The notes under the pieces were generated by a model. It saw only the letters and a program-made list of their open reading frames with translations, was not told where the DNA came from and searched no databases. Positions 3,686-30,370 of a stretch of 36,410 bases of DNA are shown here, piece after piece. The stretch spans positions 1-36,410 of the forward strand of contig JYFJ02003920.1 of NCBI GenBank assembly GCA_000934665.2, in the 5' to 3' direction. This stretch comes from Catajapyx aquilonaris (lineage: Eukaryota). The position numbers and the translations under genes were made by a program. Positions within the stretch are counted from its first letter, which is position 1, and the number at the start of each line of letters is the position of its first letter.

Positions 3686-6600
3686 TCATGGGTCCTCTTC
3701 AAGTGGCTCCCTGTCAGTCAAGGTCACTATCTTGCTAAACAAGTCCATGAAGTAGTGCTGCGTTCCAGTGCTCTCTGTGTCTGTCGCACAGGCTGCATCT
3801 ACGCAATACAAATGATCACACCCATACAGTTCTTTATAATATTGGGGAGGGAGTCATGACTTGAAAAGATACTGTCAGGCAGAAGTAACAGCAGAGAAAG
3901 ATTCAAATTATTACTGCATGCTTTAACAAAGCACTTGATGGGCTTATTGTTTTTAATGACTATTTCACCAAAAATGTGGCTTATTCACCTTTTGCCTCCT
4001 CAAATTTACCATGCAGGACCCTGTTCTGGGGCACTGAGATAGAGTCGCAGGTAATGTTCTCCACCGCAGAAATTTCGTTGAGGAGTGTCTTGACATCCTT
4101 CACTTTGATCTTGCCTGTGATGTGCTTCATGAGTCGCTTTGCCACCACATTCAATCCTATTCCAGCCCCCTGAAAAACCTTGAGATGGGCCTGAAGAGCC
4201 TTTGCTTTGGTGACCAGCTCATCCTGGCAGTCGAGCATAAGCTGGAGACACTCGGATAAATCATCACCCGCAGGTGGGAGCTGAGCCAACACAGACCTCA
4301 TGCACAGAATATGCGTCACTACTTTAGCAATGTGTATGGTCGGTAGCTGAACCACTGCTGAAGGCCCAGAGCTACCATCAGCTTCATCAGCAACAGCAGT
4401 CTCAGGTTCTTCCTGCAGAGGAGGAGTCACATCGTCCAACCGCTGGCATTCTGTATCGTCACTTTCCTTTTGTGACCCCAGGTCTACCATCAGACATGTG
4501 TTGTCACTGGCTATGCTGCTCACTGGTGAGGTACTGGCAATGCTGCTCACAGGGGAGGTACTGGGCAGGCTGGGCAACGGGGAGGACTTGGGCAGGCTGC
4601 GCACAGGAGAGGAGCTGGGAAGGGTTTCCATATCAGCAAGATCTGATAGTTCATACTGACCTGTAAATGAAGATGGCAATCTATCAGTTATGGCAAGTGG
4701 TGCAGGCCAATTTAAAAAAAGTACTAGCAGGAAGCCTGTCTCCAACGGCTGCCGGAAAAGTCTGAGATGGCTGCGACACAGCCTTTTCAGCCCACTGCAT
4801 CCTTTTTCAATGATCATTAAACGAGACCAATTTGATTACATGATGTTTGCTAGTCGCACTGAGATTTCCACAACACCTATTATGTTGATATTAGTATGTC
4901 TGAACAGTATGTATCTGCAGCCAGTAGGATCTGCCTCCAAAACTCTATGTGCAAAAGACAGTGAAACCGGCAGAATTGCTCAATTCCATGAATTTACTCT
5001 GTAATGAACAAATTTTAACCAATATCTGACAAAAAACCACATTGAAACTCATCTGTCTGTGCAGTGGTAAAACTTCTGTTATATCGAGGCTTTGTCGTAT
5101 GCTTGTTTACTGCACTTTAACATTATTTCAAATGGCAAAAAATTGCTTACCCATCACCAATCCTCCCTTTTTTCCACGACTCTGTTCTGAGATAGCTTTA
5201 TCTTCTTTCACTTGCTTTTCTTTCGCAGGCCTCGCTTCTGTCAGTGTTAAATGCATCTTGCCTGCAGTTGCTTTCATTCTGGACGCCTCTTTGCCCTTCT
5301 CTGATTGCTTGCGTTTTTCTTCCTCCTTTCTCTGCCTCTCCTCTAGTTGTTTCGCCTGCATCAGCTTCACTTCTTCCTCTTCTCTCTTCCAGCTCTCCTC
5401 TTCCTCACTTTTAATTTCTCGTTCTCCTATCTCTTCCTCCCTCTTCTTTTGCAATGCTTCCTCTTTCCTCATCTTCTCTAGTTTCTGCCTTCTCTCTTCT
5501 TCTCTCAGACTTGCCAACATTTTTCTTTGCTTCTCCTCCTCTTGCAGCCGTTGGGTTTCCTCCTCCTTCAGTCGTTTCTCTTTCTCCTCCTTCATCTGTC
5601 GCTCTTTTTCCTCCTTCAGCTGTCGCTCTTTTTCTTCCTTCAAACGTCTTTCTTTCTCCTCCTGCAGCCGTCGCTCAGTCTCTTCTTTCAGCTGTTGCTC
5701 TTTCTCTGCCTTCAGCTGTTTCTCTTTCTCTTCCTTCAGTCGTCGCTCTCTCTCTTCCTTCAAGCGTTGCTCTTTTTCTTCCTTCAAACGTCGTTCTTTC
5801 TCTTCCTTCAGTCGTCGCTCTTTTTCTTCCTTCAAGCGTTGCTCTTTTTCTTCCTTCAAACGTCGTTCTTTCTCTTCCTTCAGTCGTCGCTCTTTCTCTT
5901 CCTTCAGTCGTCGCTCCTTCTCTTCTTTCAGGTGTCGTTCTTTCTCCGCCTTCAGCTGTTGCTCTTTTTCTTCCTGCAGCTGTCGCTCTTTCTCCTCCTT
6001 CAGTCGCTGGGCCTCTGCTTCCTTCTGCCGCTGCTCTTCTTCCTTCTGCCGCATCTCTTCTTCTTTCAACCGCCGTTCCTCCTCTTCTTTCCTCAATCTC
6101 TCAGCCTTCTCTTTTCTTTCTGCATGAGCCGCCTCTTCTGCCTTCATGTCTGCATCATACTTTGCCTGGGCATCATCTTTGGCCTTCTGGTATGCATTCT
6201 CTATTTTCTTAACATTGGAATCAAAACGGGCCTGAACTGGAACACGATCCTCCTCATAACATGTCTTCTCAACTTCTAGTCTGTCTCGGAAGATTCCCCT
6301 GTATTCATTTTTATCTTCCTCTAACGTGACACTACTTAAGCTCTCATCCAAATCCTTCATTATGGCAGCCTCTGCTTTGGCGAATGTTGCCTTACACTTT
6401 TCTAAATCCGACTGCAATTTTTCTACTTCCAGAGAGCGTTTTTTATCCCTGTCCAATTCAGCCCTGGCCAGGGCATTATTGTAGGCCTCCTTGATAGCCT
6501 CCACAGCCAGGGCATGACTTGTTTCGATTCCTGCTGCAAGTGGTATCGACTCAGCAGCTTCAGCCACACCCGCACTGTTGTTGTCACATTCAGCAATAGT

Positions 6601-9270
6601 ACCTTCAATCAGATCATCCAAGACCATATCACTAGTGAAAGCATCTTGTCCTAGGGAAGTGACACAGTTATTGTCAGCATCAATCTCCATATCACCCTCT
6701 ACTTCTTCAACAATGTTATTATCAATGCTGTCATCATCAGCAACAAAATCATTTCCAAAATCATCCGGAAGGTTGCTCACATCAGGGGCCTCCTCCACAT
6801 AATCATTCTCTAAATCCTCTGTTCTGTCGCTTTCAACTGTGTCTGATATTTCCATGGCTTCCGATAACTTGGGATCAGTTTTCTCCATGTCCCCAACTGT
6901 CACGGTGCCCATTCCTTGTTCCACTCTACTCACGCTCTCCTGCTTCTTTTCTTTAGCCCCTGTTCTTCTTTCCATCTCTTCAAAAAATCTCCTGTCGGCT
7001 TGGACATCGATGTCTTTTGCTGTTGCGAGATGCTCGTTATATCTTGTCATGCGCTCCATGTAGATGTCACTGAACATCTGCTTGGGCTCCACGGTGAAGC
7101 ACGATGATATTGCATGTTTTTTTTTCACCCCATCACCACTTGGAGGTTTGTCATGCCCGTACTTCTTTATAAGCGCATCCATTACTTCCAGACCCTTTCC
7201 TGTCCTGTAAAGACAAAAGATACACATTTTATCAGATTCTTAACACTCATTGCAGGGCTAACATGACTCTGAGAGCATGTACCTCATATCACCTGTCACG
7301 GATGCAATTATTACAGCAATAACTGACCATGCTTACATCAGCAAAATAATTTCAGGAACAGATTCCAATTACATTCATTGCAAATGCTGTGAAAAACCTG
7401 TATTGGGACAAAACTAATGTTCCACAGTGGACATGTTTGCTTTTGCTACATTAATTAGCTGCTTAATATTAACCAGCTACTTAGGAATAGTTACTTCTGG
7501 TGGCCATAAATATATTAGCTGCTAATATTAAGCCTAAATAAATCACCTATCCAAGCTCGGAATTGACCCATTTCCAGTTGCGTGCCTCTCGCAGCCAAAT
7601 TGGCCTGCCATCAAAATGGCTGCGTTATATGTGCAGAGGCTATCCCTGCCCATGTTAAATGGCCTCTGCTTGCTCACGTCTGGGGGTCTGGCTCCAGGGC
7701 AGATCTTGTTGACATATTTTTTTTGGAGTGAGGAGGTTCCTGGCCTGCCCTCACCAGGTCCCAAAAGTTAATTGGCTGCCAGGCGGACTGCCCCCGGAGT
7801 GATTTCGTGAGTGCGAGTTTCTCATTACTATCCGGCTTCTCATTATCCGCGTCTTATGGTTTGGCCCGGGGGCAGATCTTGCTGGTAATTTTTTTTAAAG
7901 TTCCATTCATAAATTACACTGTCACATTTTAGACTCCCAGCATAGCATAACTGCTGGAAAAATATGCAGTATTCAGGGTGGTCCAACTTCAAGTGTCGTT
8001 TTATAACAGCTATTAATAGAAGCGCTTAACGATTGACGTAGCAGCGATGTGTAAAATGCCCACTTCGGCGCCATCGGAAATATTAGCTGTGTTTTGTTTG
8101 CAGGCTTCCCCCTTGCATTACAGGTCCATGGTCCATCTGGTGCCTTGGGCGTCACCCATTTCACCCAGGCGCATCTCAGGTCATGTGTGCACCTACTTTT
8201 TTCCAGGTCACCCCAGCAGCAGGGTTCATTACATGTGTGCTGCTATTGGCAGCTAATATTTCTATGGCGCCAAAGTGGGCCATTTTATACGTCGCTGCTG
8301 TGTCATCGCAAAATCACTGCTATTAATCGCCGCTATAAAATGACACTTGAAGTTGGTCCACCCTGTAGATACGTATCGCAAACATTTAGATTTGAGGAGA
8401 AATGACAGATTTTTTTTAAATAAATGAGCAAGTTACAAACTTACACACATATAGTCAAAAGTAAGGTCCATTTTCAAAAGGGTTCATGCTCAACAAGATC
8501 TCCCCCGGGGCCAAACCACAAATGCTGACAATAAGAAGGTGGATAATAGTGAGAAAAGCGTGGTCACCGCTCACAAAATAACTACGAGGGCAGTTCCCCT
8601 TGGCGCCGATTCACTTCAGGCACCTGGAAAGGGAAGGTCCGGCTCCTAGTCACTCCAAAAAAAATTACCAGCAAGATCTGCCCCGGGCCAAACCATAAGA
8701 CGTGGACAATGAGAGGCCGGATAGTAATGAGAAACTCGCACTGGGGGCAGTCTGCCTGGGGACCAATTAACTTTTAGAACCAGGTGAGGGCAGGCCAGGA
8801 ACCTCCTCACTCCAAAAAAAAAATGTCAACAAGATGTGCCTCGGGGCCAGACCCCCAGACGTGAGCAAGCAGCGGCCATTTAACATAGGCGGGGATAGGA
8901 AAGTCCCGGCTCTGCACATATAACGCAGTAATTTTGCTGGCAGGCCAAATTTGGCCGCGAGAGGTGCGCAACTGGAAATTGGTCAATTGCAATTAATTTA
9001 TGGTTGGGTCCAATTGGCATCAAACGTAAATTCTTCACTAAAATAAATATGAGCAATGGTTATTTCACACAATGTATATGCTCCGCAACCTGTAAATGCA
9101 ATAAGCTTCATGGACATGTACACTCACCCAACTACCTGATCCCTCTTGCTTGACCGTGCCGCAATCTCTGCCTGTGTCAGCTTATGAAGCTTCGGCTTCA
9201 ACTTGTCACATTCAGGAGCAGGGCGCTTGGGTGTCAATACCCTACAAAACGGGTTGTCCTTGGAACCCAT
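3686..9270 (-). CDS. Unidentified ~993-aa protein with an acidic region and a long ER/K-rich helical repeat
   Basis: Exons 9270-9128 (MGSKDNPFCR...), 7204-5151, 4660-3989 and 3798-3686, all GT-AG with matching phases (2,1,1); 2982 nt in total. Includes ORFs 5128..7227 and 3981..4817. The last exon is least certain (alternative stop at 3981). No family recognised. Confidence 0.7.
5545..6020 (-). repeat. Coding 24-nt tandem repeat (~19 copies) encoding EEKE(R/Q)RLK
   Basis: Plus-strand unit close to TTCCTTCAGTCGTCGCTCTTTCTC; the translation is repeated EEKERRLK. Confidence 0.95.
7559..8990. mobile_element. Foldback / non-autonomous DNA transposon with ~335-bp inverted arms, in intron 1 of the ER/K gene
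   Basis: 7559-7895 is reverse-complementary to ~8657-8990 (AATTGACCCATTTCCAGTTGCG... vs ...CGCAACTGGAAATTGGTCAATT). Internal ~160-180-bp subrepeats (AAGATCTGCCCCGGGCCAAACC at ~8495, ~8673, ~8831). TSD not identified. Confidence 0.8.
7974..8365. mobile_element. MITE with CAGGGTGG termini nested in the foldback element
   Basis: ~115-bp inverted arms CAGGGTGGTCCAACTTCAAGTGTC... vs ...GACACTTGAAGTTGGTCCACCCTG; TA at 8366-8367, left flank TT. Confidence 0.85.
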
Positions 9271-17198: not shown

Positions 17199-17931
17199 TA
17201 TTGTCACACTTCCGACCCAACAATAAATCCACCACGTTTGTCTCACCCACTACGTAGTGCCAATTAATTCATCGCCGCCCAGACTTGACTCAACCAATTT
17301 GAACACATGCAGAAACACCACGTGACAATATGTGTGGGCGACACCCCCATAAATTCAGATCTAATCTCGACACATTTATAGCGTTAGATTAAATAGATTC
17401 GGACAAAATATTAAAAATAGTTCCGCACAGTTTGGATCAGTCCCACCGACTGGTCTGCACAATGAGTCCACGTGACCTCGTCACCAACGGATGTTGCCAG
17501 TTGACCCTCAAATTATACCAAGGTTTGGCTGAGATTGAAAACGTGCCAATTAATACTAATGCAATAATAATTAACCCATTTTAAAATTTGTGTGGATACA
17601 ACCAGCCCACGTATACCGATGCAGAAGTGGCAACGTTTGCTTTTATTTACAACGGAGCTCAAAGACCTCGGTATCACATTTCCACCCTCTGAAAAGGAAA
17701 CTGAATACCCTTCTATACAATGCATGGTCCACCCCTCACGTGTATACGAACAGGACCCAAACTCTCCCCTTCACAGTCCATAACTTTCAATTGATATTTA
17801 ATTGGGCATGATCAGGACATGTCCTACGCACACATGAATCATTGATGAGATACAGACGCACACATGTCAAGAGGATGTGTAATCAAAAGTTTGATCCCAT
17901 GTGTTGATCCTATTAGTTACTAAGCAACCAT

Positions 17932-19623
17932 ATGGATATAAAAACCAGAGATAATGCTCCAGTTTTGGTCATAATGATGGTGGGTGTAGCCATTGTTGCA
18001 TTGTCTCACATCTACGGATTTGCAGGGATATTGAATCAATTGCTGGAGTCATCTGAAGTGGCTAATTGTAGTGTCAGGTTGGCTGAAGATGGTACCGGTA
18101 CGGTGTTGTATGATCTGATGAAACAACTAGATTTGAAGTACAGATCTGTTGAGATTGGACAAGCATCGATGACGTTGGCTCAAAAACGGAACAGTTGCAA
18201 CGTGAATGTCATCTTGGTCAACAAAAGTCACCGGTATGTCCACCAATACCACCCGTATACAATTTTACGCAATACATTTTATTATAGGTTACCATGGGAT
18301 TGGACATGGAGACCAGCCGACTTCTACGTTGTTCGCATACGACACGACATATTCCGGTCCTTCTACAGCCCCTGGAAAGTATGGCCCAAGTACACCACAT
18401 TCGCTGTCGAGCACCCAGAAGGAACTGCCCTGTACTCCGTCTGTCATTTTTGTCCGAACGGTCGTAATGTCCTAGTACCGATTGCCGGTACATTTTTCCC
18501 AGATTCGACCAGACATCTTCATGGTAACGTACTGGTGGTCCAAAACGCAATTAGGGGCGTAGTTAATTACCTGTCAGATGCACTTGATTTTCGAGTGTTC
18601 AGTTGCCCGTACACACCATGCTACTCGGACATCGGGATTCACCACACCATAATGCACCAGAAGAAGAGCACGGTGGTGTACACATCGCCGTACCTGTTCG
18701 GCCGCATCGCCTTCGCAGTCTCTCGTCCAAAGGCCGACTTTAGCTGGAAGGCCGTGGTACGACCCTTCACACCGACAGCATGGTTGTACCTCTTCTCACT
18801 CTTCGTCCTGGCCTACGTGACCATACTCGGATTCGACAAAGCCACCAGTTCATCCTCCGGGTCACCGATGCAGCGGTATATCATACCCCCGCTGTTCTAC
18901 CAAGGTATACGTTTCCCGACTCATCCGGTCATCCGCTGTTTCCTGACCTTCTGGTGCTGCTTCTGTCTGGTCATCAGCACCGCCTTCACATCCAAGCTGA
19001 CCTCCTTCATCATCATACCTGAGCACCTTCTGGTCGGATCGTTGGAGGAACTGCCAGGTCAAGGGTACCGATGGGGCACGCCATACCATCTACAAACAGG
19101 CCGTCACTTCCTCAACTTCTCCGGAACCTCGACGTACCAGAAGGTGGTTGACCTTCTGGAACACGAGGACAGCGTGGACCGTTGTCTCCAGCGTGCTCTG
19201 GAGGAACGTTTCGCCTGCATCCACCAGGAAGACATCCTGAGGAACACAGCTTTGTTGCACTTCACCAACCCGGACGGTATGGGCCAACACATCCAACAAT
19301 ACTCTGAGCTACCACCGTTCATGATGACCCTCAGCATGCCCCGTGGGTCACCTTTGTTCGGGTCAATGAGCCAGGTTGTCGCCCGGTACATCTCGGGCCA
19401 CTTTTACCACCAATTTGCTCGACGGAACACTGAGGAGGCCAAGTTGAAAGGTCGAAGACGTGCTCAATTGAATGGCACTGTTAATGAAGAGGTCAGGGCT
19501 ACTAAGCCAATTAATATGGGTCAATTAGAAGGACCTTTCGTGGCTCTGGTCACCGGAATGGGGTTGTCAACCGTGGTGTTTCTGACAGAAATCCTCCGTT
19601 GCTGCCCACAAATCCGGCGATAA
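17932..19623 (+). CDS. Divergent ionotropic receptor (IR, variant iGluR family), intronless, 563 aa
   Basis: Single ORF. Hydrophobic N-terminus (true start may be the MM at 17974), S1 end YTSPYLFGRIAFAVSRP, pre-M1/M1 WKAVVRPFTPTAW, M3 RCFLTFWCCFCLVISTAFTSKLTSFI.IP, S2 lobe, and M4 PINMGQLEGPFVALVTGMGLSTVVFLTEIL. Confidence 0.9.
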   Translation: MDIKTRDNAPVLVIMMVGVAIVALSHIYGFAGILNQLLESSEVANCSVRLAEDGTGTVLYDLMKQLDLKYRSVEIGQASMTLAQKRNSCNVNVILVNKSHRYVHQYHPYTILRNTFYYRLPWDWTWRPADFYVVRIRHDIFRSFYSPWKVWPKYTTFAVEHPEGTALYSVCHFCPNGRNVLVPIAGTFFPDSTRHLHGNVLVVQNAIRGVVNYLSDALDFRVFSCPYTPCYSDIGIHHTIMHQKKSTVVYTSPYLFGRIAFAVSRPKADFSWKAVVRPFTPTAWLYLFSLFVLAYVTILGFDKATSSSSGSPMQRYIIPPLFYQGIRFPTHPVIRCFLTFWCCFCLVISTAFTSKLTSFIIIPEHLLVGSLEELPGQGYRWGTPYHLQTGRHFLNFSGTSTYQKVVDLLEHEDSVDRCLQRALEERFACIHQEDILRNTALLHFTNPDGMGQHIQQYSELPPFMMTLSMPRGSPLFGSMSQVVARYISGHFYHQFARRNTEEAKLKGRRRAQLNGTVNEEVRATKPINMGQLEGPFVALVTGMGLSTVVFLTEILRCCPQIRR

Positions 19624-21511: not shown

Positions 21512-24367
21512 ATGCCGCTAACACGTACCGATCCATTGCAGAGAACGATGGAAGGCAAACGGTCTCCACCTTCAACTCTTCCGAAGCCCAGGCTCCAGGG
21601 TCGGCCCATGATCCCGTTGCCCATCGAGGCTTTCGAGGCAGGGAGGGAAAGGCCGCCTGATTTTATCCTGCAGTTGGAGCGGAAGAAGTCCTTCAAGTTG
21701 GCCCACGAGCAGGGGGCTGGGAATCCATGCAACAAATGTGGTGACCTTTGCCCTGGATTTGACCTGCACTTTTGGAGGTATATGTTTGATAGGGGCTGCG
21801 GCATGATTTATATGAGACACCCGGTACTATGCTGATAGCTTTTTTGACCTGAAAGGCGCAGAAGTGCTTTTGTGGGGCAAATGTGCGGCGTTGAAGGCTG
21901 GCTGCTGTCAAGGTCACATCTGGCTTTTGAAACAATGCGCCTGACGCATCTGCTTATTTGTAGCATGAAGCGTAGTAAACAGCCTTTTAAGCGCATCTGA
22001 ATTGCAAACCAATAGTAAGCCAAAATTGCAGATATGATAATAAATATCACAACTGCCAGGAAGCTTCAGGTGGAACATACACAGCGTTGACGAGACACCA
22101 CATTTTGCTAACATTACACGTTTTATGCGACAGGAAAATATGCCGTCACTGCAAGTGCGGGAAGCAAGAACATAGTGTGGCGGATGAAGACAACTTCCAC
22201 ACAGTTGAGAGGCTTCTGGGACCTCGGGACAAGAGCATTCCAAAGTGTAAGTCAAGGGTGGCACTGCTAATTGGACCTTGACCTAATTTTTGTGCTTTGA
22301 TTTGTACAGGGACGAGAATGAAGACGATGGACCAGACTGGCAACTCGCAGGACGTGCAGTACGCCTGGGTTCCACCGGGAGTGAGCCTCGATGTGGTGAG
22401 TGCAAATGTTTTGTGCCCTTAAAATGTGACAATTATGCAATGTTAACCTTGTAACGACAGGCGAAAGAATACATGGAGAAGATTCCTGTGGAGAAGCAGC
22501 CAATAAGGGGCTCGGAAGGTGACAAGAACAGGAAAGACCAGCTCCAGAGGCAGGTCCCGCCACATGACATGGACGACACACTGTGCCATGCTCTCACTCC
22601 AGAAGAGCGCTTGTGGTGAGTAGATGGTGAAGAATACTCCAGACATGGATTGACATGTTGATGGCTGATTTAATTTCCGCATTAGCTTGCAGCAGTATGT
22701 GGATAACCTGAAGGAGAATGCGGTGGGACAAGGGTCTGTCCGCATCTGCAAGCTGTCCACTGCGCCGGCCTCAACAGCCAGATCCGTGGGACTGGGACAT
22801 GTCAAGCACCCACCACCAGCTCCATTCTTTCTGCGACGCAACTCTAACAATGCCACCAACAACAATGAGCCACCTTCCCCGCAAGATTGGCCTCCTCCAC
22901 CTCCGCCCTCCGCCTTCCACACTGATGAGGTCCTGAGCAGCCCTGAGCTGAAGCCGTCCAACATGGAACCACCCAGTTTCCCTCCACCTCCGCCACCATC
23001 ATTGTTGCTGAAGGCTGACGGAGTGGATGAGCTGGGACAAGCAATTGAAGGCATGGGATTGAACAACAATGGATGGAAGGAGGAGCTCACACCCACAGTC
23101 AGGGACCAGGTTGTGCTCAAGATGTGAGTATTGTAATCACACACTGAAATTTTCTGTATTCATGCAAACATGATTTTTTTCCTTCTAATCAGTGTACAGA
23201 CGATGTATCCCGAGGCAACATTTGAGAGCATGCAGGAAATGCCGATGCACGAGTTTGCCACATTTGTTGGGGAGAAAGAGAGCCAGATGTACGATAAGGC
23301 AGGTTCCTTGGATGATTACTGCGACCATGTGGAAGCAATCATGAGGGACGTTCGAGAGGAGATGGGTAAGAAAGTGACATGTCATAATACCTGACAGCAA
23401 CAATGTTCACGTAAAAATCTAACATTTCAGATCGCCAAGACCCAAGCAGGATTTACGGCAATGAAGTTGATCAGGTGGTGTATGCTGGTGACCTTGACTC
23501 CTCCTGCCGCAAGTGCAACAAGCCTCTGACAGAAGGAGAGGTGCTGGTGGTGGCCGAGAGGGCAGGAGGCGGCACCTGGTGGCATCCGGAATGCTTCTGC
23601 TGCAAAGTCTGCGGAGAGATGCTGGTTGACCTCATTTACTTCCATCACGAAGGAGAGCTTTACTGCGGAAGGCACTACGCAGAGGCCGTGTCCATACCCA
23701 GATGTCATGCATGCGATGAGGTCAGTGTATGGGTGACAAGGTTAAAGTGTTAGAGTTTAAATAATGTTTGAGCTTTCACTAGTCTTGCTCTCAGTCAGAT
23801 GGATTTGGGAAAGGTAAGGCTTGCCTTTAGTGAACGTTTGGTATTATTTGAATTTGCGGTTGAAAGGCTTGAAGAAAATGGTGTTCATGAGCTTTTTCTT
23901 CTCAGCTCATATTTTCCAAGGAGTACACCCTGACAGCTGGAGCAACGTACCACGTTAAGCACTTCTGTTGCTTCGGATGCGACAACCCTCTGGCGGACCA
24001 AAAGTACGTCGTCATGGCTGAGCAGCAGGACCAGCCACATTGCCTCCCATGTTACCAGAAGTATTTTGGGAAGGTGAGATAAACGCATCTGCATGATTCT
24101 AGCTTGCCATGAGTTGTATCATGTCGGAGCTCTCTACAAACTGAATTCTACCATTGTCAGGTGTGTCGCACCTGCAGGCGTGACATAGGACCTGAGGAGC
24201 CAGCCCTGACTCATGGGACCCTTCACTTTCATGCCAACGACCAATGCTTCAGCTGCGATACCTGCAAGGCTACCCTCCTCGGCGGCAGGTTTTTGGAAAA
24301 AGATGGATTCATCTTTTGCAGCAGGGAGTGTAAAGCCAAAAAGTTGGTCGTTGAGACTGCTATCTGA
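21512..24367 (+). CDS. Tes: Testin-like protein (Cys-rich, PET, Pro-rich, KIX-like, 3x LIM), ~631 aa
   Basis: Exons 21512-21777, 22134-22246, 22310-22395, 22461-22615, 22686-23123, 23193-23365, 23431-23720, 23906-24073, 24161-24367; 1896 nt. Testin Cys-rich motif [33 protein letters not shown]; PET motifs YAWVPPG, Q.PPHD and AVGQG; LIM motifs WHPECFCCKVC..L.DLIYF, CGRHYAE..PRCHACDELIF, HFCCFGC and HFHA..CFSC..C. Alternative start at 21548. Confidence 0.92.
23071..23365 (+). other. KIX-like domain within the testin (23071-23123 + 23193-23365)
   Basis: Spliced peptide GWKEELTPTVRDQVVLKIVQTMYPEATFESMQEMPMHEFATFVGEKESQMYDKAGSLDDYCDHVEAIMRDVREEM aligns without gaps to the recalled CBP KIX sequence [75 protein letters not shown]. 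Confidence 0.8.
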
Positions 24368-25671: not shown

Positions 25672-28600
25672 TCAGTAGATCCTCCTGTTGTTAAGCACAT
25701 TGTACACAATTGCTGCGAATGTCATCTGCACTGCCTCGCCTAGTTCCACTCCCTTCTTTCCCTTTTCCTCCACGCCTCCTTCCAACGCTCTCTCCGCATT
25801 GCACACCCTCCCCATTTGCACCAGAAGCCCCACTGCATCCTCCAGCATAATTGGAAATGCCTGGCAGGCTCTTGCGATTGCTGGCAATGCTCCCTTGAAC
25901 AGGGCTGCTCTGGATTCACCTGGGAGCACTCCCAAAAGGGTCGACAGCTCGTTCAGGGAAAGTCGTGCTATGGAATAGGCCTGTGGAAGTGCAAACTGTA
26001 CGGACAGGTGGGAGATGAGTTCCACGGCAAAAGACTGCTGGGACAGTTGCGGCTGGCTCAGCAGTTCTGGGATCCATTCCAGGCAGATGTGCATCGATGG
26101 GATACCACGGACTGTCACATCTAGCAAGTGTGGGTCATATCCCTGGAAGCAACACATTGTAGCAACAATTGACAACAGAAACATTTACGCAAAGTGCACA
26201 AGTACCTGAAAGTGTACAAGCTTGGCCAGTCCTGGATCCAGAATGAAAACCTGGTGCAGATATGAGCAGACCACACTCCTGGTCTCCTGCAAGTTCCACA
26301 ACTCCCCTCTCGTTGACGGTCCATTGTTGTTCTTGTCTGGAAGACAAGCCTCCAACAGTATCTGAACCACTGCACTCTCCTGGCCCGCAACCAGTGTTAC
26401 TCGCAACTCTTCACGTTCACTCTCAGAGGCACCGTTGTTGCCACCATTGTTCCCGACTCGGTCCAACTGGTGGCGCGACAGCTTGGCTCTGCATGCAGCC
26501 AGTGCTGCTGCCTGCATGCGGAGGAGGACCTCCAGCAATGGAGGACACCTGAGTAGAAAGACACTCCATATTAGTCACAACTTCAGGTTACAGCTCCATT
26601 GAAGCCGAGTCACAGCTGACAATATGCTTCAAAATGAGCACGTTTATAATTACGTACAAATTCACTGACCTGAATATCCTGGGGTCGCACCTGAGCACAA
26701 GCAAGGGATCAATCGACATCTGCTCTTCCACACTGGGCACTGCAGAGAGCCAAGACGAACCCCCAATACCCGAGATGAGGGTGGAGGGCAGCAAGGCAGC
26801 CACCGAGGTCACCCACAAGTGCCGGGGAAGGACGCTTGCCAAGTGGAACCACACCCGTTTGTACAGCTCTAAAAGTTTCGGTTCAAAAATGTTAATGCAA
26901 TCACAGGATTATAATTATTATAAGATTGGCGGTCCTTACCTTGCAGCTGCCTGGGTAGATCTGGATGCAAAACATCTTTGAAGAAGGAGATGAACACGTT
27001 CGAATATTGCCACACTTCCACTGCTGGCATGGACAGCAAGCGACGGAGGAGTTGGGCAACCAAACCAGGACATGAGTGCATCTTCTCAAAGGCTTCGGAA
27101 AGGATACGACAAATCAGTTTTAACACGAATTATTAGAAAACGATCCTTTACCATCCCGAATGTCTCCCTCGGTGATCCTACAAGCCCTTCCTCCTCTGCT
27201 GGCAACTCCCCCAACCTGACCAGCCAGGTAGATGTCATCCTGGTCGTACAACCAGTCTTCCACCAGACAGAGGTGTGGGAAATGTGTAGCCAGTAGCCTC
27301 AGGAGAGATGGGACCAGTCCGGAACAATTAGTCTTTTCCCTCAGGGCTTGTTGGAGCAGGTGCTTGATGGGGAGGCGGTTGAGCAGCCTCTGGGAGTAGG
27401 CCTTGTGACGAGTCCAATTGGAGGAGTTCGGACCGCCAGTGGGTCGGCCAGGCAGACGCTGGTCCTCATACAGGAGGGCATAGTACAACAGAAGAAGTTG
27501 TGCCGGGAGGGATGCATGAACAGGTGGGGGTCCAGCAGAAGAGGGTTCCGCGGCGGATGCAACAGACCCAAGGAACACAGCCCATAACTGGAAAGTAATT
27601 TTGTAAGTGCACATTGCCGCAGCTGCATACAAAACTTTCTCGGCGTATGACTCACCTCATCCTCACTAATCGGCTCATTGGTGTGCTCCGGATTTCCCTT
27701 GCTGCTAGGAACCAGGATGGATGTCACGTACACCTCAATGAGTGCAGGAAGCACTGGATGAAGGGGAGCCTTGCAACTGCACACCTGCCTGTAGCCACAA
27801 GCACCAACAACGGCATAAATATCTTGAGCCCACATATTCACATTAATATTACTGTACCTGTAGATCCAGTTCTTGATTGGTACCCTGTGCTTGGTGAAGG
27901 CCCTGCTCTTAAGAAGCTGATAAATACAATGCACTGGCAGGAAGCCGGGAATGTTGGCATTCAGATCTGGTGTCACCGGAACACGCACTGCTTGAGCCGT
28001 CACCACCTGTAATTAATAAAGATCCCAGATACACATATTTTATCAGGAGCAATGTTAGTTCCAGCAGAATTCATGTCCAAAAATATTTCCGAACCTGCTC
28101 TGTGAAGATCTCTAGGGTAAAGATCTGCTTCATCCGAGTGAGGCTGTTGGGCCTGACGGGGACTTTCATCCCTAAGGTAGAGCACACCAAGTCGCATATG
28201 GCACTCAGCTGGTTGCTGTGGAAGTGGATGGCCATCAACAGGAGCATCTCACCAAACGACGAGGATGTAGCTTCTGTGCCGTCATTGCCACTGCTGCTCC
28301 TAGTATTATAAAATTGCAATTCATGTTGAGAAAACATACTGTCGCCACTCCTCATAGCCAATGTTATTGTTGTTACACCAATTCTAGGCCATTCAGTCCC
28401 CGCTGACCTGTGCAAGTATGCCTCTTCCTTGGCAAGCCACTTGATCCAGGACACGCTCTTCTTCTCATGCTCTGCAGACGCCACAAGTGACGGGCAGGCA
28501 AAGAGCATGCACAGTCCCAAGGACACAAATCGTACCCCTGCAGCTGAGTTCTGCGGAGGTCGGGAAGTCAACAGCTGCACCACCAGCTCTACTTCCTCTT

Positions 28601-30370
28601 CGGTAAACTTCAGGGTGGCTATGCCCTGTGGTGATAGAAACAACAGTCACTATACAATGCAGGACATGTACTTGTGTTTTCTGACTGAAATAAACCGCAC
28701 CTTGAGAGCACAATAGAGCCTGAGAAGGGTCGAGGCCTCCACCACCAGGCTGTCTGGCAACACCCCTCCGTCCTGGTGGTGGTGATGGTGGTGATGCTTC
28801 TTCCCATCCAACTTTGGTTTGATGGGAGTCCTCTGGCGGATGATCCGCTTCAAGTGGGCCACCAATTCTTCGCGAAGTAGCTGCAGGGCAGACTGCGCCT
28901 CCCACTTGCGCTTCTGGCCATTGCGCACGAACAAGGAAAACCAGTTGCGGACCTGCCCAATGCACAAAATTGTAATAGAACCATAGGCAACTGCATGCTG
29001 AAATAATTAGCTAATGTTCACCTGTTGATCATTTCCGAGTAAAAGACCAGACACAAATGACACAAGGTCACTGCTGGAGCCTTCATCATCTGGCTGGCTT
29101 GTATCCATGAGCTCCGGATCATCCTGCTTCACGGTAGGTGCTGGTAACTCCGGAGGGGAACCCTTCAGGCAAAAAATTAGCATATGTGAACCACAAGGTA
29201 CATCAGACGTTAACAAACCAACCTGTACCTGATTAGGAAGACTGAGCAACACGGCCAGGGCTGGCATCCGACATGTCTCAACACATTTGGCCCTTATAGC
29301 CAACGCCTGAGAGGGGTTCATTTTGCACAGCATTAGGACGCATGCCAGCCTGACCCTTCCCCCTTGCGATTCCTCCTCTTGCTTCTCACCCGCTGCTACG
29401 AGTCCACCTACCACCTCCCTGAAGCAGTCTGGCATGTTGGCCAGCAAGCGGCACAGGACCCAGGGACCATGCCTGACACGGAGGAGTGCTTCTGAAACCT
29501 CGGAGACAGAGAGGACCCCAGGAAGCTCAGCCAGAGCAATGCACAGGACATCGCATATCTCCTCCACATACACCCCATTGTCAAAGAGGTCAGACTCTCG
29601 AATGGAGAACTCTGATGCAGGGCCTACCTCTTGAGTCTAAAAGAAATGAAAAGTTCCATTACAGAAAATGTTAGGCTGCTCAAACATGGCCATATTTTTC
29701 CGCTTACCTGGGAGATTGCAAGAAGTATTTCTCTGAGTACAAGTCTCAATCTGTCGGTGCTGTCACTCCTCTCAAACTCTTGGGCAAGCCTTTCCTGCGA
29801 CCAATTACCTAAAATGCTGTCATGTTGGCTGCTTCCAAGCTTCTGCCTGAAAATGCAGATGCATCGTCAATTACTGTAGGAAAAAAATTCTCGTTTGCTA
29901 AAAAAAATCACAAACAAATAGTAACAACACAAAGGAACGGCTGCCTATGAAGTTTGTGCCACGAACCTGAGCTGCTGCTCTTTCTTGACGTCAACCTCAA
30001 GATTGTGGAAGTCGATGGACAGCAGTGCCACCAGAGAGTTCACCGTCTCAATCCCGGACAGAATAGTCAGGATCCCCTTCCTGCCATCCGCACAATCCTG
30101 GCTCAAATCCAGCGGTGCAATCAAACTCATGCGCACCTGAAAAAGATGCACAATGCGCGCAACATGAACAAAGTGCGACCAGATGGGCACTGGATTCTTA
30201 ACTTTCTTTTCATGGGTTCACTGCGCCCCTGACTCATTCTGATCCATTACCAGGCAAGGCAGGATGGGCCTGAGCTCGTGCTCCGTGCATCCGGACAGGT
30301 GGTTGATGTCCACGTTCTGCAAGCCCTCGAACACGTGCGGGGACACCGGCTGACGCTGACGACGGAGCAT
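25672..30370 (-). CDS. INTS2: Integrator complex subunit 2, ~1180 aa
   Basis: 15 exons: 30370-30251, 30136-29967, 29846-29708, 29636-29223, 29162-29022, 28952-28701, 28625-28408, 28299-28095, 28006-27858, 27788-27656, 27587-27152, 27092-26940, 26868-26670, 26548-26206, 26142-25672; 3543 nt, phases consistent. Motifs ELRPILPCLVRMSL, VNSLVALLSIDFH.LE.D..KEQQLR, FGEMLLLMAIHFHSNQLSAICDLVCSTLGMK, DPLLVLRCDPRIFRCPP and LVHFQGY...V.GIPSMHICL. Confidence 0.95.

Follow-up and report, generated by a model that had tools for sequence, protein, structure and literature searches.

A testin-type gene carrying a KIX-like segment between its PET domain and its first LIM domain (LIM1) was found on the + strand of contig JYFJ02003920.1 from Catajapyx aquilonaris, whose first 36,410 nucleotides (nt) are the whole stretch of DNA analyzed here and are referred to as the window. 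The KIX-like exon is expressed, and it is spliced in frame into an mRNA that carries the PET and LIM exons. The segment, of about 76 amino acids (aa), has its coding sequence in the last part of exon 5 and in exon 6, and as a whole it is probably best explained as a divergent KIX homologue lodged in the PET-LIM1 hinge, with one binding groove of the MLL type. KIX is the activator-docking module of the nuclear co-activators CBP/p300, MED15 and RECQL5, and testin is an adaptor of focal adhesions and cell junctions whose activity depends on the PET-LIM hinge; a testin with a KIX-like module would be a new domain combination, undescribed in the searched literature.

The gene model was built from stop-to-stop frames and from the joints of one spliced contig of a public run, and comprises nine exons on the + strand (21548-24367). 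Run X1 provided this single contig of 2486 nt, with a word depth of 25.3 and 0 letters differing from the window. It starts at 22332, in the PET region, spans the KIX-like exon and the exons for the three LIM domains, and crosses six introns (22395 to 24161), every joint being GT..AG; since it is spliced, it must derive from RNA or cDNA. The transcript support consists of this one contig from one study, which leaves the 5' end of the gene uncovered. The first-pass annotation, made from the letters of the sequence, had proposed that the domain is assembled by splicing from 23123 to 23193, and exactly this joint was present in the contig, where it unambiguously removes a 69-nt GT..AG intron of phase 2 (23124..23192, + strand) that separates profile positions 22 and 23 inside the KIX-like domain. 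The downstream junction that it had placed at 23365/23431 was also recovered in the contig, resolved to these positions across a 65-nt GT..AG intron of phase 1 (23366..23430, + strand) that separates the KIX-like exon from LIM1; the exon in between (23193-23365) was covered by the spliced contig, confirming its presence in transcripts.

Exon 5 ends in phase 2 (AT/T, an Ile codon), and exon 6 has a phase-2 intron before it and a phase-1 intron after it. As exon 6 is 173 nt long, its skipping would shift the reading frame of the LIM domains, and therefore exon 6 should be constitutive in any LIM-bearing product. The protein has 619 aa when read from the ATG at 21548, or the 631 aa given by the first-pass annotation when read from an in-frame ATG 12 codons upstream; the KIX-like segment corresponds to about aa 323-398 of the 619-aa model. 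No second copy of the segment was detected by tblastn within the window.

Similarity to KIX was scored on unspliced pieces: either exon 6 alone (57 aa), or a read-through query made of the exon-5 end, the in-frame 69-nt intron (23 codons, with X at two stops) and exon 6, in which the insertion costs score. The searches covered 24,736 Pfam models, 177,635 PDB sequences and 7.7 million ESM Atlas clusters. For exon 6 alone the best Pfam family was KIX (E=0.0044, 17.7 bits), with residues 1-50 aligned to profile positions 23-72 of 81, two stretches of equal length, and the second family was Med15_N, the KIX of MED15 (E=0.045). The read-through query matched KIX with 20.9 bits (E=0.00045), and the only other families reached were KIX_2 and Med15_N. 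The assignment to KIX was thus upheld as far as the best-ranking family is concerned, with both queries, but not at the level of the Pfam gathering cut-off, which for KIX (PF02172) is 27 bits. All three PDB sequences matched by exon 6 at E<=10 were CBP KIX (E 0.73-0.84, chain residues 23-67), as were the four matched by the read-through query (E 0.11-0.21), the best E-value moving from 0.73 to 0.11. The first ESM Atlas match of exon 6 was a KIX cluster (0.87, 185 of 256 features), and the 10 best named matches all belonged to the KIX clan. CBP/p300 KIX (PF02172; 1KDX, 2AGH, 6DMX) was therefore the best match by Pfam, by PDB sequence and by language-model features. The MED15 KIX has the same three-helix docking fold, binds amphipathic activation helices and is N-terminal in a Mediator tail subunit; its two models (PF09606 Med15_N and PF16987 KIX_2) ranked as second and third Pfam families (E 0.045-0.064) and it also appeared among the Atlas neighbours, more weakly than the CBP-type model. 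By these comparisons the segment is most like a CBP-type KIX.

The two coding pieces matched adjacent parts of the CBP domain. The end of exon 5 (23071..23123, + strand) encodes GWKEELTPTVRDQVVLK(I), which the HMMER alignment places on the G1 turn and alpha-1 helix of CBP KIX, and exon 6 (23193..23365, + strand) encodes what would be the remainder of the domain (G2 turn, alpha-2 and alpha-3), as indicated by Pfam KIX and contig coverage. The stretch NNGWKEELTPTVRDQVVLK aligned to CBP KIX chain residues 4-23 with 7/20 identities (HMMER, read-through query), and exon 6 to chain residues 23-67 with 11/45 (HMMER). Since the first piece stops at chain residue 21-22 and exon 6 picks up at 23, the splice gives a gapless register; because the confirmed joint abuts the two pieces, the combined alignment over chain residues 4-67 is gapless, with 18/65 identities in printed columns (about 28%; 24-35% by piece), in line with the gapless alignment of about 19/75 identities that had been drawn by eye. 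This register of the two pieces across the splice is regarded as the strongest single argument against chance. When chain residue n is read as CBP residue 585+n, an offset that we take to be that of 1KDX, the 12 core residues that the first-pass annotation had named (W591, T596, R600, K606, P613, M625, E636, M639, Y640, A643, S645 and Y649) were all identical in the HMMER alignments and in gapless register; as judged from the alignment, the core residues that define the KIX fold are kept. Taken together, these comparisons indicate a match to KIX that exceeds chance, each separate signal being weak. CBP/p300 KIX sits in an acetyltransferase, whereas the KIX-like segment is found in a cytoskeletal adaptor and is split by the phase-2 intron at profile positions 22/23.

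The host gene was identified by its domain order. PET was recognized in exons 3-4 (Pfam E=3.6e-17; E=0.023 for the short first piece) and was followed by three C-terminal LIM domains, all of them joined in one spliced contig. The best PDB matches of LIM3 were human TESTIN chains (2iyb_E, E=2.9e-12; 2xqn_T, E=2.4e-11), and the next LIM protein after TESTIN among the PDB sequences reached E=2.8e-4; the comparison with prickle is incomplete, since the PDB may lack chains of this protein. The region preceding PET contains a Cys-rich motif that no Pfam model covers and that we take to be of the testin/LMCD1 type. The first-pass identification of the host as a testin agrees with these results, and the gene, with a Cys-rich N-terminus, PET, a Pro-rich linker and three LIM domains, is on its sequence of the testin type, having the same elements in the same order as testin (TES), whose hinge is also Pro-rich. 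The PET-LIM1 hinge is about 200 aa long, and its linker, with 21% Pro, holds two [FW]PPPP motifs, DWPPPPPPS (aa 263-268) and SFPPPPPPS (aa 293-299). FPPPP is the motif that the EVH1 domains of Ena/VASP proteins recognize in their ligands, and human testin has been reported to bind Mena through LIM3. The linkers of two relatives obtained from metagenomes, L001 (5551-6117) and L005 (965-1948), carry DLFPPPLSP and DLFPPPPSP. A [FW]PPPP-type motif may have been present in the hinges of invertebrate-type testins for a long time.

The TES class has other members or derivatives that act with transcription factors, LMCD1/dyxin and FHL/ACT, the FHL-type ACT being a co-activator of CREM/CREB; they do so via LIM or Cys-rich regions and not via KIX, and no homology was seen between them and the KIX-like segment. 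These proteins show that the TES class can bridge the cytoskeleton and transcription. In the sections available of a survey of the LIM superclass, the Tes family is described as PET plus 2-3 LIM domains only, with no mention of KIX (PMC3305314), whereas the window gene adds the KIX-like module and the two [FW]PPPP motifs.

Six metagenome loci were gathered with the LIM1 exon, three of which (L001, L005 and L002) cover the PET-LIM1 interval. None of these three carried the KIX-like segment (tblastn E<=10; Pfam KIX E<=1), supporting the view that it is not general to PET-LIM genes. L001 has a Cys-rich region, PET and LIM domains, with the linker and the LIM1 start in one exon, and in L005 the linker and the LIM1 start share one open frame; the LIM1 domains of both are 42-57% identical to that of the window gene. 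L002 (412-1446) has an intron-free, continuous frame with PET and three LIM domains, in which 17 aa separate the PET and LIM tblastn matches. Its Ser/Asp-rich N-terminus, the lack of a Cys-rich region and the near absence of a PET-LIM1 linker represent another PET-LIM architecture.

A word-index search with exon 6, limited to longer proteins, in a library of 5.8 billion proteins that holds practically no animal proteins, gave 3 candidates, none of which scored, and the PET exon gave 6 in the same library, likewise without a score. As the PET exon finds nothing there, the library can be considered practically devoid of animal proteins, and therefore the blanks obtained with exon 6 say nothing about rarity. 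Against metagenome contigs, exon 6 produced 317 pattern matches, none of which was confirmed. A HMMER search with exon 6 against 1.84 billion representatives returned one protein at E<=0.001 (P0002), a repetitive, acidic protein of 1425 aa matched in 3 short stretches, which was rejected as a relative and considered a compositional match. Repeats in this protein, such as YDQAGSDLDDFTEHxETI, mimic the YDKAGSLDDYCDHVEAI stretch of alpha-2/alpha-3.

The strongest of the competing explanations concerns novelty: testins with a PET-KIX-LIM architecture may be widespread in the phylum of the organism, and perhaps already annotated automatically, which we regard as a serious possibility falling somewhat short of even. 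The absence of relatives from the 5.8-billion library is meaningless in this respect, as the PET exon itself found no protein there, and if the spliced domain were to pass 27 bits, automatic pipelines would already have labelled it. The three PET-LIM relatives that cover the interval and do not carry the segment point in the opposite direction, as does the literature, in which no publication was found that pairs "testin" with "KIX" or "KIX domain" with "PET domain", and none, among the matches listed, that joins KIX with LMCD1, prickle, dyxin or PET-LIM. The survey sections cited above are without KIX as well, and KIXBASE, in the portion consulted, names CBP/p300, MED15 and RECQL5 as the KIX classes (PMC5668377).

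The surface of the segment was compared with that of the CBP domain. CBP KIX is basic overall, has an intact c-Myb/pKID groove and contacts phosphoserine through K662, whereas the window segment is acidic, with the groove residues replaced and the hydrophobic residues of the MLL pocket kept. In CBP, alpha-1 and alpha-3 flank the c-Myb/pKID groove, which is blocked by Y650A/A654Q/Y658A, while the MLL pocket is made of I611, F612, L628, Y631 and L664 (plus I660) and is blocked by I660A/L664A; the MLL site carries positive charge, and ligands share the motif Φ-x-x-Φ-Φ (PMC12698673). In the window segment, the equivalents of A654, Y658, I660, K662 and L664 were read from a gapless extension beyond the printed alignment. 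The four groove residues appear all replaced, Y650 by C in the printed alignment, and A654 by E, Y658 by R and K662 by E in the extension, as the first-pass annotation had read them; these changes concern function and not fold. The equivalents of the MLL pocket all appear hydrophobic and conservatively kept: I611 is replaced by M, F612 by Y, L628 by F and Y631 by F in the printed alignment, and I660 by V and L664 by M in the extension. A total of 17 acidic and 7 basic residues were counted in the 76-aa segment, giving a net charge of -10, which bears out the more acidic character that had been attributed to it.

According to the preferred reading, the constitutive hinge segment of about 76 aa, encoded by the exon-5 end and exon 6, would be a divergent homologue of the KIX three-helix bundle that would fold as a KIX-like bundle and dock a short amphipathic helix of a disordered partner. 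One working groove would be expected, of the MLL type, with a ligand set unlike that of CBP, because the MLL hydrophobics are kept, Y650/A654/Y658 are replaced, and the net charge is -10 versus a positively charged MLL site in CBP. The expected ligands would be basic or neutral helices, and not acidic activation domains or phospho-KID. The module adjoins the [FW]PPPP motifs in the flexible hinge and would add one more partner to the adaptor; alternatively, it might dock a helix of testin itself, tuning its closed/open state.

This last alternative can be taken as an explanation of its own, in which the KIX domain docks a helix from testin's own N-terminal half or linker and sets the closed/open state for LIM partners, with no outside partner such as a transcription factor; we consider it rather unlikely. 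It would fit the location of the domain in the hinge that joins the PET half to the LIM half, as well as the loss of the pKID/c-Myb groove residues and the net charge of -10, unlike that of CBP KIX; moreover, PET has been described to bind the protein's own LIM domains, altering partner choice and location (PMC3305314, citing Garvalov 2003). The protein does have Φ-x-x-Φ-Φ words outside the segment, such as those at aa 101 and 196, but such words often arise by chance, and of the 10 detected most fall within folded domains.

A more ambitious version of the preferred reading, which in its entirety we hold to be doubtful, is that a cytoplasmic adhesion/actin adaptor acquired a KIX domain that kept only the MLL-type pocket and turned acidic. 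The domain would thus have been re-purposed outside transcription to read a new class of basic amphipathic helices, either retaining a nuclear factor at adhesions pending a change in tension or gating the closed/open switch of testin. Such a KIX would be without precedent among cytoskeletal LIM proteins and confined to one invertebrate lineage.

Predicted structures were obtained for the same unspliced pieces. The AlphaFold2 single-sequence model of exon 6 had a predicted local distance difference test (pLDDT) score of 79.9, with helices at residues 10-14, 18-36 and 39-56, which match the KIX order and the rough lengths of G2, alpha-2 and alpha-3 (element names as used in PMC12698673). The read-through model had helices at the places of G1 and alpha-1, with low confidence. 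In the Foldseek search with this model the first 4 of 35 rows were CBP KIX (E 1.9-4.4, TM 0.27-0.38); these rows are not significant, and at such TM values they are no evidence of a shared fold.

Several observations weigh against a divergent KIX homologue, and some of them are also the ones that favor chance or convergent likeness, by which a helical, acidic part of the hinge would resemble KIX with neither its descent nor its fold. The Pfam scores (17.7 and, at the highest, 20.9 bits) stay under the cut-off of 27, the PDB E-values are all above 0.1 (0.11 or more), and the first helix alone, as pieces of 25 and 41 aa, had no Pfam or PDB match at E<=10. The ESM Atlas score, being below 0.9, counts as a lead only, and recognition (2269) was just under the 2300 mark. 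Scores and models alike come from the pieces or the read-through and not from the spliced domain, and the read-through model was poor (pLDDT 59.5), the hydrophobic translation of the intron becoming an artificial helix in it. Structure searches with the exon-6 model did not bring up KIX: Foldseek gave 0 rows at E<=10 against the PDB, and the wide VIA-align search gave 798 chains at Z>=2 (best Z 4.4), with only unrelated helical proteins and no KIX among the best 50, a result that is uninformative for a helical hairpin of 57 aa. No orthologue with the KIX-like segment was found in the metagenome contigs, or in the protein library and the 1.84 billion representatives, both of which hold practically no animal proteins. 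The assignment of the binding sites rests on an alignment with 24-28% identity and, for five positions, on its gapless extension. Short helical segments with Φ-x-x-Φ-Φ spacing align easily, and the match to P0002 illustrates how composition can bring about a match of the acidic motif YD.AGS.DD..EH.

Nevertheless, we judge such a chance resemblance to be unlikely, and slightly more so than the intramolecular role. Three methods (Pfam, PDB and ESM Atlas), which have only the sequence in common, ranked KIX first; pieces encoded by different exons correspond to neighbouring parts of KIX and are put in register by the splice; the identities fall on the listed fold residues; and the helices predicted agree with G2, alpha-2 and alpha-3 in order and length. 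A KIX-type domain in testin, by both homology and fold, is therefore held to be probable, on scores that are sub-threshold.

As regards the origin of the segment, metazoan KIX domains share an average identity of 73% according to Table 4 of KIXBASE (PMC5668377), and a recent copy of CBP KIX is unlikely because the identity found here is only about 28%. A recent capture from CBP KIX thus seems unlikely, leaving an old acquisition or fast divergence as the options. The KIX-like domain is not a clean shuffled exon either, because the large linker exon runs on into its first helix and the phases of exon 6 are unequal (2, 1). The least probable of the explanations, close to the first-pass proposal of a captured CBP/p300-type KIX that binds transcription factors, is that a KIX derived from CBP/p300 would act as a tether or decoy for activation domains such as those of CREB and Myb, either at adhesions or in the nucleus. 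It could invoke CBP-type KIX as the best family, ahead of Med15_N and KIX_2, as well as the reported presence of LIM adaptors of the TES class in the nucleus and the binding of LMCD1 to GATA6 (PMC3305314). We nevertheless consider it very unlikely: Y650, A654 and Y658, which when mutated in CBP leave the c-Myb/pKID site blocked, are C, E and R here; the change of K662 to E (gapless extension) would affect the phosphoserine contact; the net charge of -10 does not suit known KIX ligands, which are acidic activation domains; and the 24-35% identity to CBP KIX lies far from the metazoan mean of 73% (PMC5668377).

If the preferred reading of a divergent, MLL-type KIX in the testin hinge is true, the gene would represent a natural experiment in which a two-site allosteric docking domain lost one site and reversed its charge. 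It would also provide a possible direct physical link between an adhesion adaptor and the helical motifs of regulatory proteins. The KIX-like domain is small, soluble-looking and expressed, and is thus readily testable, while its value would shrink to that of an annotation note if the architecture were common in the phylum.

The other exons of the testin-type gene, all on the + strand, were delimited as follows. Exon 1 (21548..21777) holds the putative start and the first half of the N-terminal Cys-rich region, and was defined by its open reading frame, a GT donor at 21778 and the frame; it lies outside the coverage of the transcript contig, its start codon is inferred, and it had no Pfam match. 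Exon 2 (22134..22246), with the second half of the Cys-rich region, was placed by AG/GT sites and frame, and its last 30 letters were present on the loose end (at 22310) of a second contig. The PET domain is encoded by exons 3 and 4 (22310-22395 and 22461-22615), supported by Pfam PET and by the joint 22395/22461 in the contig. The main part of exon 5 (22686..23070), which follows the joint 22615/22686 seen in the contig, contains the end of the PET region and the Pro-rich linker, and no Pfam family was found in it. LIM1 is encoded by exon 7 (23431..23720; Pfam LIM E=6.9e-13), LIM2 by exon 8 (23906..24073; E=1.1e-08, joint in the contig), and LIM3 with the stop codon by exon 9 (24161..24367; E=1.4e-06).

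Elsewhere in the window there were 0 Rfam matches. The longest open frame of the window (5128-7239, - strand) encodes 703 aa and had no Pfam family at E<=0.001; several long, overlapping frames on the other strand (5030-6279) suggest an unusual composition in this region. Just upstream of the testin-type gene, a single uninterrupted frame of 568 aa (17917-19623, + strand) matched Lig_chan below threshold (E=1.3e-05, 25.5 bits versus a cut-off of 30.8) and looks like an intronless, divergent gene of the ionotropic-glutamate-receptor type. On the other side, the gene for Integrator complex subunit 2 (INTS2; 25672-29636, - strand) lies tail to tail with the testin-type gene, and five of the frames scanned matched Pfam INTS2 (E-values between 1e-39 and 7e-59), their profile positions running in descending order.

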